Shown one piece after another: positions 1,374-5,615 of a DNA stretch of 35,039 nucleotides (positions are counted from its first letter, which is position 1; every line of letters starts with the position of its first letter). The DNA is from an uncultured Gammaproteobacteria bacterium. Lineage in GTDB: Bacteria; Patescibacteriota; Patescibacteriia; UBA2196; GWA2-42-15. The notes under the pieces were generated by a model. The model ran no database searches and had not been told where the DNA came from. It was given only the letters and a program-made list of their open reading frames with translations. The position numbers and the translations under genes are program-made. The DNA is taken from positions 1-35,039 of the forward strand of contig CAZVLW010000003.1 of the NCBI GenBank assembly GCA_964628705.1. Reading direction: 5' to 3'.

Positions 1374-2057
1374 TTAATTATTGATTAAACGTTTAGTATA
1401 ATTCACCAAACAAATATTTCTTTGATAATCCATGCGCATTGGACCCAATATGCCGATTAAATTTTTATTTACTTTCGCTAAAATAGCAGCACAATTGTCA
1501 TTAAAACTATTATCAGATCCTATATTTACCTCAACTTCTTGTATTTGATTGTATATCTTACCAACCCCTTCATCTAAATGATCAATTACTGCTCCCATAT
1601 GGTATATAGCATCAAAATCACGGAACTCAGGCTGGCTAAAAAGGTTTGAAATACCGGTATAATAAACATCGTGTTTATCAAAAGCTATAAAAACTGCTGC
1701 ATTAGATAATTCCGCCATTTGTTTAGCCAACCTTTTCATTTTAAGCAATACATCTTTATTTTTAATTTTATTCACTTTATCTAATATTTGCTTGTCTTTT
1801 CTGTTTAAGGGTTTATTAAAATCTATAAAATTATCAACATAAAATTTATATCCTTTTTCAGTTGGCACCCTGCCCCCTGAAGTGTGCAAATGAGTTAAAA
1901 ATCCATAATCTTCCATGATTGACATATCATTTCTTACAGTCGCAGGCGATACATCCAAACTATATTTATCTACCAATAACCTTGAACCTACTGCTTGGGC
2001 AAAATCAATATGCTCTTTGACTAAATTCTTAAACAATTTTTTTTGCCTTTGATTCAT
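1374..2057 (-). CDS. hrcA: Heat-inducible transcription repressor HrcA (short form, 227 aa)
   Basis: SPATVRNDM, HTSGGRVPTEKGYKFYVD, GILGPMRMDY; CIRCE directly upstream. Confidence 0.97.
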   Translation of the reverse strand: MNQRQKKLFKNLVKEHIDFAQAVGSRLLVDKYSLDVSPATVRNDMSIMEDYGFLTHLHTSGGRVPTEKGYKFYVDNFIDFNKPLNRKDKQILDKVNKIKNKDVLLKMKRLAKQMAELSNAAVFIAFDKHDVYYTGISNLFSQPEFRDFDAIYHMGAVIDHLDEGVGKIYNQIQEVEVNIGSDNSFNDNCAAILAKVNKNLIGILGPMRMDYQRNICLVNYTKRLINN

Positions 2058-2088
2058 AAAATCATTTATTACTATTATATCTCTCTAT

Positions 2089-2115
2089 TTAGCACTCATC
2101 AAGTGAGAGTGCTAA
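2089..2115. promoter_or_regulatory. CIRCE operator (HrcA binding site)
   Basis: Exact TTAGCACTC-N9-GAGTGCTAA between the promoter and the hrcA start. Confidence 0.98.
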
Positions 2116-2119
2116 ATAT

Positions 2120-2148
2120 ATTATAACTCTGCCTTTATCTGTTGTCAA
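2120..2148 (-). promoter_or_regulatory. sigma70-type promoter of the hrcA operon
   Basis: Minus strand TTGACA (2143-2148), 17 bp, TATAAT (2120-2125): perfect consensus. Confidence 0.9.
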
Positions 2149-2159
2149 GAGTTAAACCA

Positions 2160-2833
2160 AAAAACAAATAAAAACCAAGACTAACAATAAAAATAAATGT
2201 GATTAGCTGTTGGCTGAATAAAACCAAAAGGCCGCTGATTTTTGGCCAAAGTTCAGGAATTTAAAATTTTTTGAGAAGAGAGATTTTTATCCGACGATAA
2301 GTCAGATTTTTCTAATTCCTAAACTTCTTTAAACCAGCGGCCTTTTAATAACAATAATCAACTTGAATTATTATTAACTTTATTTTTTTTAAAAAATTTA
2401 TGGTTATTTCTAAACAGTCCAATACCAAACCAGTGTAACATAAATTTAACAAATAGACAACTCCACCACATAAAAAACAATGGCTATTAACCAAAGCCAG
2501 AAAAAATTAACGGCTTAAGTTGGAGGCTTGGTAGTGCAATAAATGCACATAGCCTGAAGATAAATAAATAGCATTATGGCTACTAGCCATTTGCTTAAAG
2601 TGCACGATATGTGGGTAAATCCAGTCGTAACCAGATTATACCTACTACCATACACCCGCCTCCAACTTAAACCGTTAAAATAATATGATTACTTATTAGG
2701 ATAGGGATCTTTCACCTAAAAGGCGGTTTGGAAGAGAGCTTCCAAACCGCCTTATTAGGCTACTAGAGATTATTTTCTACTTAAAAACAATCTCTAATAT
2801 CTCTCTTCTCAAATTTACAAATTTATGTAAATT
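2160..2833 (-). ncRNA. Candidate large structured non-coding or leader RNA, family unknown; 3' boundary approximate
   Basis: No ORF of 60 aa or more; own promoter; many long stems whose mismatches become G-U pairs on the minus strand; 15-bp pairing between 5' and 3' regions. Confidence 0.65.
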
Positions 2834-2838
2834 ATATT

Positions 2839-2867
2839 ATCATAACATACATAAAAATATTTGTCAA
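2839..2867 (-). promoter_or_regulatory. sigma70 promoter pointing into the non-coding region
   Basis: TTGACA (2862-2867), 17 bp, TATGAT (2839-2844) with extended TGn; predicted start about 2832. Confidence 0.75.
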
Positions 2868-2883
2868 GCAAAAAATAAATAAA

Positions 2884-2910
2884 AAACTAATATTTAGCTA
2901 ATATTAGTTT
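2884..2910 (-). terminator. Intrinsic terminator of the DUF4012 gene
   Basis: AAACTAATATT-TAGCT-AATATTAGTTT hairpin followed by a T-rich tract on the minus strand. Confidence 0.55.
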
Positions 2911-2936
2911 AAAAAATATTCTTAACTAACTCCTGA

Positions 2937-5615
2937 CTAATTATTTTTGGTCTTAAATCCAAATACTTTATCGCTATCCAATTGGGTCTCATATTTAAGT
3001 CCCCCACCTTCTATTATTTCAACTTCCGAGTTTGGTACATAATCAAAAATTTGCCAGCCCGGCGCAGGTTTAATCTGGCTTACAAATTTAACATCTGAGC
3101 TACCAGGCTGTTTTTGTATATATAGACTATAAACATTATTGCGATCATCCTGTGCTATACTCCCCAGCTTATGATATTTATCTACAAAATACTTGATAAC
3201 TAAATCATAAAAATTATAATCTCTCTCAATGACATCCAACTTATTCCCTTGAGATAATCCAAAAGGTAAAATATATTTTAGTGATACTTGTTTTTCTTCA
3301 CCCGGCTCAACACTTACCCAGCCAGCATACACATATTTATCAAATTCCTGTTTAATACGCACATTCTGTTTGTCATCAACTTGAATTAATTTTTCATATT
3401 TTTTTAAACTAGGATCTGGTGAAACTGCCATGTCCACTTTATAATCTCTATCAATCGGCATCTCATCAAAACCTTGGGCTGTAATTAATTGACTGCCTAA
3501 AGGCACATAAATCCTCATATAATTAGTATTCTTATGTCCCTCAAAAACATCGTCCGGCTTACCATTATGAATGGTATTTATCTTCAACTCCACTACAAAT
3601 TTACCATTGGACAACATTTGCAAATTGTGTTTCACCCCCCTTTCAACTACCTTATCTGTTTTTCCACCGGCCACATTGGTATTAACTATTTGTAAATAAT
3701 CCCCATCTGTTTGTTGAATTCTACCAGCCCAACTAAATTGCTCAATTTTATGCTGAATCTTATCATCTTGACTATATAACAATATTTGCTTATTTTCCAA
3801 TAAGTCAGATAATCTTAAAACTAACTCCATTGCCTTTTCAGAATCAAGCTCATTTAAGCGATTCAACACTTTAGGCATTAAATCGGCAATAAATTGTTTG
3901 GGCTTATTTTCCTGCTTGTCATATTCCAACTCCACTTCAATTTGTGTCATACGCACAAAATTTTTACTGTTCACAGCAGTATTATATTGGGGCATATCTA
4001 TTTCGCCTACTAAATTTAATATCTCCTCCATTACATCTGGTGTAAAAGTAATTATTCCATCTACTGTTGGGCCTCCGGACTTATCATAAAACCACATTAT
4101 TTTTTCAGATGATACTTTCCAATCAGGAAACCAATTGGCATTCCATGGTTGCCAAACAGGACTAAATAAATGAAACGGGTGGGGCGCGTCAACTCTTGCC
4201 TCAAGGCTACCCTTTAAATCATAAAAACCGCCCCCGGGAACTTCTACCTGTTTAATTTCCCCATTTTTAATATCCACTATGGCGTAGGAACCCATAAATC
4301 CACCGGTTGGCCTAATCTCACGATTGTTTTGAAAAACCAACATTAACCTGCGTGGCTCTTCTGCCCCAATGAAATAACCTGCTAACTCAAATAAATTTCT
4401 ACTTTCAACTAAATAATTTTCTAATAGTGGTAAATTTTGCCGATAGCTCTCTAATATAGGAGCATATTCACCTAAATTGGATTTCTTAATATCCAAATCT
4501 GACATCAGATTTATAATCTGGACAGTCTTATTAGCTGCCAAATCCAATTCATTTACTATAGAGCCCCATTTCACATCCTGCCCATACTCTATATTGTCTG
4601 CAGAGCTTTCATTTGCCGCTAATTCAAAATTGGCTTGCTTAAAAAATCTGTCTAACCCATCAGCTGCTGTGCTAAGATGGGCACCCACCTCTGCTGTGAG
4701 TCTACTCATTTGAATTAACTCTTTACCTTGTTTAAATTCTGGAAAAAAATTACCTACTTGATTGGCTATTAATCCTAAATTGGATAAACTTACCTCAGCA
4801 TAACTCAACTTGCTTTGAGCCAACTCAAAATTGTCTTGAGCCGCGTTAAAATCCAACTTCATACCTGCCTCACCCCCCTGTTTTAAATAATCCAAACCCA
4901 TCTTAGAAGCTCCCATTACCTCACCCTTAACTTGGTCTATCTGCCTATATTTAGATAAACTATAAAAAGGCAAAATCAATAAACTCGCTACTAACACAAA
5001 AGATAATGATTTCTTCAAAACTGTTGACATCCCATAAAATCTTATTTGATTCTTTTCTACTGGCCAATCTATATCCTGCTCAATCTCAGCATGGTCACCC
5101 CGACTGCCAAAAAGATATACATATACATGCTTAAAAGCCATAATAAACTCCCAAAAATAGACTAAAATCACTTTTAATAACGCAAAAAACAATTTAACAA
5201 ACCTGCCGGCATTCTTAAATAACACATACACACCATTCAACACGGCCCTGGCCAAACTAACAAGACCACGCTTTATAAAAACATAACACCTATCATACCA
5301 AGCATATCTCAATTTTGGCGGCTTATGCCAATCTCTAATTTTCGCTTTTTCCAGCTTTTCTTCGTCAAACACAATACCCAAATCTCTACCCATTTGATTT
5401 ATATCATAATCATAAGACTTATTTTCCATCCAACGCCCGAGTTCGTCGTCTTTGGCATACAATTTATCTATTTCTATATCATCATCTTCTTCAAAGGCGT
5501 CTGTTAACGGCTCTTCATATTCTTTTTGCAGTTTTTCTTTCTCCACTTCCAACTCCCAAGATAATCTTTCAATCTCGGATTGAATTTGGCTTTTTTTGTT
5601 ATATTTATCAGCCAT
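2937..5615 (-). CDS. DUF4012-domain membrane-anchored protein
   Basis: VFQNNREIRPTGGFMGSY, NANWFPDW, VDGIITF, NVAGGKTD motifs as recalled for DUF4012; hydrophobic segment near aa 205-218. Confidence 0.85.
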   Translation of the reverse strand: MADKYNKKSQIQSEIERLSWELEVEKEKLQKEYEEPLTDAFEEDDDIEIDKLYAKDDELGRWMENKSYDYDINQMGRDLGIVFDEEKLEKAKIRDWHKPPKLRYAWYDRCYVFIKRGLVSLARAVLNGVYVLFKNAGRFVKLFFALLKVILVYFWEFIMAFKHVYVYLFGSRGDHAEIEQDIDWPVEKNQIRFYGMSTVLKKSLSFVLVASLLILPFYSLSKYRQIDQVKGEVMGASKMGLDYLKQGGEAGMKLDFNAAQDNFELAQSKLSYAEVSLSNLGLIANQVGNFFPEFKQGKELIQMSRLTAEVGAHLSTAADGLDRFFKQANFELAANESSADNIEYGQDVKWGSIVNELDLAANKTVQIINLMSDLDIKKSNLGEYAPILESYRQNLPLLENYLVESRNLFELAGYFIGAEEPRRLMLVFQNNREIRPTGGFMGSYAIVDIKNGEIKQVEVPGGGFYDLKGSLEARVDAPHPFHLFSPVWQPWNANWFPDWKVSSEKIMWFYDKSGGPTVDGIITFTPDVMEEILNLVGEIDMPQYNTAVNSKNFVRMTQIEVELEYDKQENKPKQFIADLMPKVLNRLNELDSEKAMELVLRLSDLLENKQILLYSQDDKIQHKIEQFSWAGRIQQTDGDYLQIVNTNVAGGKTDKVVERGVKHNLQMLSNGKFVVELKINTIHNGKPDDVFEGHKNTNYMRIYVPLGSQLITAQGFDEMPIDRDYKVDMAVSPDPSLKKYEKLIQVDDKQNVRIKQEFDKYVYAGWVSVEPGEEKQVSLKYILPFGLSQGNKLDVIERDYNFYDLVIKYFVDKYHKLGSIAQDDRNNVYSLYIQKQPGSSDVKFVSQIKPAPGWQIFDYVPNSEVEIIEGGGLKYETQLDSDKVFGFKTKNN

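Follow-up and report, generated by a model that had tools for sequence, protein, structure and literature searches.

The window analyzed here, i.e., the full 35,039 nucleotides (nt) of contig CAZVLW010000003.1 from an uncultured bacterium of the Candidate Phyla Radiation (CPR, or Patescibacteria), carries on its minus strand an hrcA gene (1374–2057, encoding an HrcA domain according to a domain search) and, upstream of it, a gene for an 892-amino-acid (aa) protein identified in the same way as a DUF4012 gene (2937–5615). The interval between these genes was originally predicted to encode a single, independently promoted structured RNA of 600–670 nt, tied to the hrcA heat-shock operon. As stated then, the listing of open reading frames (ORFs) contains none of ≥60 aa in this interval (the longest are 49, 46, and 40 aa), and a promoter scan recovered the near-consensus minus-strand promoter TTGACA-17-TATGAT (Table 1). 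The single RNA was not borne out by comparison with relatives, which resolve the locus into separately conserved units. Based on this comparison, the minus strand of the interval probably encodes two structured RNAs that are conserved independently of each other, act in trans, and would pair through their complementary tracts: RNA-1, which contains a multibranch domain A, and RNA-2, which consists of a hairpin, domain B.

We evaluated the folding of positions 2160–2867 on both strands, as the original prediction had proposed. The minus-strand fold reached −229.9 kcal/mol compared to −148 ± 6.4 kcal/mol for 20 dinucleotide shuffles (z = −12.7), and the plus-strand fold reached −177.7 kcal/mol (z = −7.9, dinucleotide shuffles). 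The stretch folds far beyond its shuffled versions, and the observation is real and not a product of chance. Strand asymmetry was also seen with covariance models: domain A of the window scored 148.6 bits in the forward and 35.6 bits in the reverse orientation, and forward scores far exceeded reverse scores in relatives as well (e.g., 213 vs 33 bits). The stronger minus-strand fold and these model scores are both consistent with the G-U pairs that had been proposed for this strand. The stems listed at the time exist as inverted repeats, with two exceptions: the 7-bp stem at 2529–2535/2644–2650 occurs in neither the minimum-energy fold nor the consensus of the relatives, and the A+T-only hairpin at 2812–2833 is not conserved among relatives.

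A BLAST search with positions 2160–2935 in 40 relatives yielded matches in 22 of 41 genomes, every one of them ≤70 nt and corresponding to the promoter, one hairpin, or a CU tract. Because BLAST returned short pieces only, homologues were sought by reading the sequences and with covariance models. The hairpin with the UACG loop was matched in three genomes of the same family, and a pattern scan provided a fourth locus. All four loci share one order of parts, i.e., a strong promoter, a short leader, domain A (a multibranch structure of ~190 nt), a terminator-like hairpin, a second promoter, domain B (a hairpin of ~115–125 nt followed by a U tail), and hrcA with its controlling inverted repeat of chaperone expression (CIRCE).

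Three covariance models were used across the order, which was sampled as families f1 (that of the window), f2, and f3: R1 for domain B, R2 for domain A, and R3 for domain A as built from f3 copies. R2 detected domain A in 10/10 f1 genomes, including that of the window (66–213 bits), and, at 26 bits, in the only f2 genome; R3 detected it in 13/13 f3 genomes and at the same places in 7/9 other f1 genomes. Combined, the two models placed one copy of domain A in each of the 24 sampled genomes of the order. Domain B was located in 17 genomes (in genome G004, the contig ends before B). Beyond the order, R3 had matches in 8 of the 147 genomes sampled from the class: family f16 (3/3 genomes) encodes a 163-nt three-way version of domain A with the same P1 core, and the other matches correspond to a smaller related RNA of ~105 nt. 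As far as these model matches indicate, domains A and B are specific to one order of CPR, plus a few families.

The homologues display compensatory changes, as would be expected for the functional structured minus-strand RNA originally predicted. For domain A, both partners had changed in 34 of 74 pairs among 10 f1 sequences and in 36 of 63 among seven f3 sequences, with 84.5% and 92.9% of cells paired compared to 31–50% and 36–49% in slid controls. This comparison is somewhat biased in favour of the structures, whose source was a single member or the consensus of the alignment. In the closing stem of domain B (17 sequences), 13 of 16 pairs changed on both sides and 97.1% of cells were paired (slid controls: 28–53%; 28–56% overall across alignments). 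None of 500 shuffles reached the observed values for any of these three counts, although the alignments are small (7–17 sequences) and kinship among the genomes inflates shuffle-based measures. The covariation and the strand asymmetry therefore indicate that the RNAs are under selection for structure, and that the selected strand is the minus strand. On this comparative evidence, the interval is a real, conserved, structured RNA locus without a described family.

In the architecture that we propose (Table 1), RNA-1 would start near 2832 with a leader composed of a purine tract, a variable hairpin, and a terminator-like hairpin, continue through domain A, and end near 2501 by means of the long closing helix and a run of six U, for a total of ~330 nt. 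P1 followed by this U6 run appears to resemble an intrinsic terminator. Within domain A, P2 forms a long hairpin whose conserved tip combines tandem G-U pairs with a UNCG loop, P3 and P5 are present in the window copy, and P4 of relatives is absent from it. The promoter type of RNA-1 was also found upstream of domain A in 12 of the 16 relatives' loci examined. The very stable leader hairpin, with a pyrimidine-rich loop and 3′ arm partly complementary to the purine (GA) tract, looks like a terminator or attenuator; it is followed by only four U, and the terminator scan did not call it. Modules analogous to those of the window leader (GA tract, CU segment, and U run) can be read in relatives from genus g5, f2, and f3, and the U runs of the leader hairpins are clearer in g5 and f3 than in the window. 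RNA-2 would correspond to domain B, a hairpin of ~125–135 nt in which the G+C-rich closing stem and U tail would act as a terminator and the open apical loop would display a pyrimidine tract.

Table 1 Coordinates of RNA features and flanking elements in the window.
Feature	Position	Strand	Basis and remarks
RNA-1 promoter, TTGACA-17-TATGAT, TG before −10	2867–2839	minus	Promoter scan, 11/12 matches; start inferred near 2832
Purine (GA) tract of leader	2799–2813	minus	Unpaired in predicted fold; exact 15-nt complement of 2270–2284
Leader hairpin, variable among relatives	2761–2799	minus	Inverted repeat, fold
Very stable leader hairpin, then four U	2715–2759	minus	−30.4 kcal/mol; inverted repeat
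Domain A, five-way junction	2507–2678	minus	Models R2 and R3; covariation; folds
P1 of domain A	2658–2678/2507–2527	minus	Long closing helix, conserved GGAGG-type/CCTCC-type core
P2 tip with UACG loop	~2611–2642	minus	Conserved among relatives
U6 run directly after P1	2501–2506	minus	By reading
Candidate weak RNA-2 promoter, TTGTCT-17-TACACT, TG before −10	2432–2460	minus	By eye, 8/12, below scan threshold
Domain B (RNA-2), long hairpin	2226–2346	minus	Model R1, 78.6 bits; fold
Closing stem of domain B	2331–2346/2226–2241	minus	Covariation
Middle stem of domain B	2309–2326/2249–2266	minus	Fold; apical loop open
Pyrimidine (CU) tract in B apical loop	2270–2284	minus	Unpaired in predicted fold; complement of 2799–2813
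U-rich tail after B closing stem, terminator-like 3′ end	2215–2225	minus	By reading; conserved in relatives
Inverted repeat	2507–2527/2658–2678	minus	21 nt, 95% complementary
Inverted repeat	2720–2734/2739–2753	minus	15 nt, 100% complementary
Inverted repeat	2761–2776/2784–2799	minus	16 nt, 88% complementary
Inverted repeat	2226–2241/2331–2346	minus	16 nt, 94% complementary
Inverted repeat	2249–2266/2309–2326	minus	18 nt, 83% complementary
A+T-only palindrome, then T run (to ~2871)	2884–2910	minus	Inverted repeat 2871–2894/2900–2923; upstream of RNA-1 promoter
hrcA promoter	2148–2120	minus	Promoter scan, 12/12 matches; boundary, outside RNAs
CIRCE inverted repeat of hrcA	2086–2097/2107–2118	minus	Perfect 12-nt CIRCE-type repeat; boundary, outside RNAs

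The purine tract of the leader and the pyrimidine tract in the B loop form a predicted duplex of −23.0 kcal/mol, and the 12-mer core of these tracts has no third site in the 879-kb genome. Across the window, genus g5, f2, and f3, each tract keeps almost the same sequence. Across 18 loci, 10 contained both tracts and four contained neither (G003, G005, G007, and G008); tract hits with two substitutions in G001, G002, and G009 were discounted by position, and the downstream DNA of G004 lies outside this count. In G002, an altered 10-mer is still complementary. The pyrimidine 13-mer of domain B was found in 10/14 sampled genomes of the order and in 12/387 genomes outside it, the latter being about the rate of a reversed-pattern control (~9 hits). 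Duplex energy was judged non-discriminating (in the window, the only copy evaluated, −34.7 kcal/mol for the leader and B loop vs −27.4 ± 4.7 kcal/mol for shuffled leaders, z = −1.6), and the longest exact complement was used instead. In six genomes, including that of the window (G000, G010, G011, G014, G016, and G023), this complement was reached by 0–8 of 500 shuffles. In genus g6, complement matches of 5–10 nt were at chance level (21–500 of 500 shuffles). A 16-nt complement in G005 was rejected, being composed of A/T only and located upstream of the −35 element. The joint presence and joint loss of the two tracts argue that they work together, with the qualification that related genomes are not independent and that the tracts display little true covariation. 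The leader/B-loop complementarity, the one feature able to join the parts into a single fold, was missing from the original prediction.

Given these tracts, we consider it fairly likely that RNA-1 and RNA-2 pair in the cell, the pyrimidine tract of RNA-2 binding the purine tract at the 5′ end of RNA-1 over 15 bp in the window. This pairing could have one of two outcomes. In one version, the tracts would join RNA-1 and RNA-2, in trans or in cis via read-through, as a two-piece particle. In the other, the leader would be an attenuator, and pairing with B could control both the formation of the leader hairpin and the production of domain A. Specifically, in g5, f2, and f3 a pyrimidine segment can be read after the purine tract, and this segment forms one arm of a hairpin before a U run. 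Attenuation of RNA-1 by RNA-2 is nevertheless doubtful, and it is weak for the window copy because the leader hairpin is far more stable (−30.4 kcal/mol) than the alternative pairing of the purine tract with the hairpin loop and 3′ arm (−15.1 kcal/mol).

Besides these energetics, several observations weigh against two separate RNAs joined by their tracts. Every transcript boundary, and the number of transcripts, is inferred from sequence, and no scan-level promoter precedes domain B in the window, so that A and B could be co-transcribed. No terminator could be read after domain A in G014. The shuffle test for complementarity was strong in some genomes only, with 69–152 of 500 shuffles reaching the observed complement in G006, G012, G020, and G022. 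The tracts are almost invariant, with only one compensatory case in the intermolecular helix (G002). Finally, a lineage without the tracts (genus g6 and G001) retains both A and B; the pairing therefore cannot be essential to the core role of either RNA.

Some of these observations would fit a single RNA of ~620 nt (from 2832 to ~2215), in which the purine tract would pair in cis with the 3′ hairpin loop, closing the molecule in the manner of a large ornate RNA. When the entire stretch is folded, its minimum-energy structure does use the long-range tract pairing, A and B neighbour each other in an unchanged order in 16 of the 17 genomes for which both were located, and in f3 a strong terminator can be read after B, besides the weak candidate promoter of the window and the G014 locus already mentioned. 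However, the leader and domain A are each followed by a terminator-like hairpin and a U run, and a terminator-like hairpin together with a second promoter lies between A and B in five same-family genomes. In most f1 relatives, a G+C-rich hairpin and a U run can be read after A. In G008, the scan called one promoter before A (11/12) and another between A and B (10/12), the latter, TTGTCT-17-TATAAT, at the place equivalent to the candidate RNA-2 promoter of the window. In G011 (locus L043, ~1730–1905), a 58-aa ORF absent from the window, preceded by a Shine-Dalgarno-like stretch, and a further hairpin separate A from B. In G003, a terminator and a protein gene come after A, and the sole match resembling B (39.8 bits) is on another contig. 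Genus g6 retains A and B without the complementarity that would close such a molecule. Because of these terminators and promoters of relatives, the G011 ORF, and the G003 contigs, we favour two genes, between which read-through may occur, over one long RNA, which we regard as a rather improbable but serious competitor.

Other explanations would assign the interval to a known RNA, to the regulation of hrcA, or to non-functional DNA. The original prediction had found no resemblance to transfer RNA, transfer-messenger RNA (tmRNA), ribonuclease P (RNase P) RNA, signal recognition particle (SRP) RNA, or 6S RNA, and had suggested an undescribed class. Consistent with this, a search of the entire window against Rfam 15 gave no match at gathering level, including to large ornate and HEARO/omega-type RNAs, and at E-values up to 10 positions 2000–3000 gave sub-threshold chance matches to unrelated families only. 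ARAGORN reported nothing in the window, and RNase P RNA and tmRNA are located on other contigs of the genome (C29, 125.9 bits, and C57, 117.3 bits, respectively). A very divergent SRP or 6S RNA missed by Rfam models might still be suspected, since neither of these RNAs was detected anywhere in the genome and B is roughly the size of a small SRP RNA. SRP RNAs are typified by an apical GNAR-type tetraloop and conserved purine-rich internal loops, and 6S RNA by a ~180-nt rod with a large central bubble. Here, apical loops are of the UNCG type in A and variable (4–6 nt) in B, the folds include no SRP-type internal loops, and the architectures are a five-way junction (A) and a ~125-nt hairpin with an apical multi-loop (B) rather than a rod with a central bubble.

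Model searches for 6S RNA (RF00013) were negative in the window and the whole genome, and those for SRP RNA (RF00169 and RF01854) were negative in the window at gathering level, in 2000–3000 at E-values up to 10, and in the whole genome; SRP RNA was found in 0/24 genomes of the order and 0/121 of the class. SRP RNA would not be expected in this genome, because neither the Ffh M domain (PF02978; 0 in the window's genome and 0/61 genomes of the class) nor the SRP54-type GTPase domain (PF00448; 0 in the window's genome and 0/41 of the class over the cut-off) was found there. Positive controls for the SRP searches were recovered in 12–14 of 14 genomes, and in 14/14 for PF02978 and PF00448. This absence agrees with the SRP loss already reported for Parcubacteria (PMC4508563). 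With A and B also confined to one order plus a few families, a divergent housekeeping RNA is highly unlikely.

We consider it just as improbable that the RNAs act in cis on the hrcA-grpE heat-shock operon as its leader, thermosensor, or riboswitch. They do lie just upstream of hrcA, and this arrangement occurs in eight of the 10 same-family genomes, but B ends in a terminator-like stem and U tail, after which hrcA has its own promoter and CIRCE. Across the 18 loci examined, hrcA is downstream in none outside these eight: other neighbours are found in f3 and f2 (e.g., a lepA-like gene in G012), and G003 contains domain A without hrcA downstream. The tie to the hrcA operon that had originally been proposed is thus family-level synteny, and hrcA is a mere neighbour. 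Least probable of all, and hardly tenable in our view, is non-functional DNA, i.e., palindromic debris, a miniature inverted-repeat transposable element (MITE), or a decayed gene. The stems are long and nearly perfect, and the plus strand also folds well, as such debris would; however, the genome contains one full-length copy (other matches being 35–47 nt), no match was found in phage or plasmid collections, by which an origin from either was also rejected, and the element is conserved in all 24 genomes of the order with compensatory changes and strand asymmetry. Non-functional DNA is already at odds with the covariation counts.

Next to domain A, the smaller RNA detected by R3 has a wider distribution. 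In the window's own genome, contig C45 (~164–281, within locus L003, ~60–310) encodes a hairpin RNA of ~105 nt with the same promoter type, a terminator, and a fold z-score of −9.5. It includes a 10-nt bulge and, carried in this bulge, an invariant 14-mer, and its tip is similar to that of P2 in domain A. Among 13 sequences, both partners had changed in 23 of 32 pairs (reached by 0/500 shuffles), and no Rfam family matched this RNA. The degenerate 14-mer was present in 99 of the 151 genomes sampled from the class, usually as a single occurrence, compared to 5 hits for a reversed control, which suggests a wider, unrecognised RNA family in this region of the tree. The 105-nt RNA shares with domain A the GAGCATGGG-type element of the P2 tip (also found in P4 of f3 copies), the promoter type, and the pairing of a 5′ strand rich in purines with a 3′ strand rich in pyrimidines, and it is scored at 24–35 bits by the f3 domain-A model. 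Unlike domain A, it forms one long bulged hairpin, is class-wide rather than order-wide, and has no B-like partner beside it. Domain A looks like an expanded, order-specific relative of the class-wide 105-nt RNA. Separately, a Candidatus Falkowbacteria record (locus L031, ~5120–5330) contains a promoter, a ~150-nt RNA sharing the P2 tip of A and the 14-mer, and a terminator; the small form is therefore present in another CPR lineage.

Several known systems resemble the locus in part. The raiA, OLE, ROOL, and GOLLD RNAs are orphan structured bacterial RNAs of unknown function, and like them the RNAs described here have multiple helices with covariation, a lineage-restricted distribution, their own promoter, and no coding capacity. 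They differ in matching none of these families in Rfam, in their smaller size (a ~170-nt core and a 125-nt partner), and in occurring as two partners whose complementarity to each other is conserved. In plasmids pT181 and pIP501, transcription attenuation is driven by a countertranscript. The resemblance here may lie in a small RNA loop complementary to a 5′ leader with a terminator-like hairpin. The B loop, with its 15-nt exact complement, does supply a second RNA able to base-pair with the leader. Unlike in these plasmids, the small RNA is encoded in trans and on the same strand instead of antisense, what it controls would be an RNA rather than a replication protein, and the energetics of the window copy disfavour a switch. 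The Bacillus RoxS/RosA system pairs a small RNA with its sponge; shared features are two small RNAs, a conserved complementary single-stranded tract, and a pyrimidine-rich loop seed. Unlike for RoxS/RosA, no mRNA targets are evident, the 12-mer target having no other exact site in the genome and 5 one-mismatch sites compared to 7 for a reversed control. Finally, RNA-1 and RNA-2 recall 6S RNA in their abundant-looking, promoter-driven, and terminator-ended housekeeping style, within a genome in which no 6S RNA was detected, and differ from it in architecture and in the lack of a model match.

A literature search that covered few subscription journals found no description of these RNAs. We regard them as new at the level of the RNA family, while orphan structured non-coding RNAs are familiar as a general kind. 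These CPR genomes of ~1 Mb have lost much, including the SRP pathway, yet kept these RNA genes. Domain A, present in every sampled genome of the order, with a near-consensus promoter and strong covariation, is a candidate for a new RNA function, and its conserved complementarity with a second structured RNA provides a concrete hypothesis for how RNA-1 and RNA-2 might work jointly. More speculatively, an undescribed ribonucleoprotein or catalytic system of these ultra-small bacteria could have A, B, and the class-wide 105-nt relative as its RNA components, with the five-way-junction RNA as scaffold or ribozyme, its assembly or synthesis gated by pairing with B, and the invariant 14-mer of the 105-nt relative as the site bound by a conserved cellular partner, a scenario to which we assign a low probability.

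Variation in the leader and in P5 was noted in several relatives. In G001 (locus L023, ~815–940), a G+C-rich insert of ~130 nt with a long hairpin lies between the promoter and domain A, and is possibly a small mobile repeat. In f3 (loci L057, L053, L043, and L045), the P5 loop of domain A displays an invariant TTCTCTA complementary to a TCTAGAGAA stretch, which overlaps the purine tract just upstream of A in f3. This loop might be a second partner for the purine tract, one that the window's family lacks.

Within the interval, two short ORFs were rejected as coding: the 46-aa ORF inside domain A (2515–2655), as stops can be read in all three frames of relatives right after the conserved GGAGG, and the 49-aa spacer ORF, which relatives lack. 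Upstream of the RNA-1 promoter, the palindrome and T run of the terminator originally placed at 2884–2910 are present, but the scan made no terminator call there because the palindrome lacks G-C pairs. The element may be a terminator of the 892-aa gene and/or a protein-binding (regulator) site. Its core, of the GCTAAT..ATTAGC type, can be read again ~35–45 nt upstream of the −35 element in same-family relatives. The DUF4012 gene was found directly upstream of the RNA locus in 10/10 f1 genomes and in G012 of f3, and is the neighbour kept more widely than hrcA. The hrcA gene itself is short (227 aa), encoding only the C-terminal HrcA domain and a weak helix-turn-helix match, and is followed downstream by grpE and then by an Hsp20 gene.

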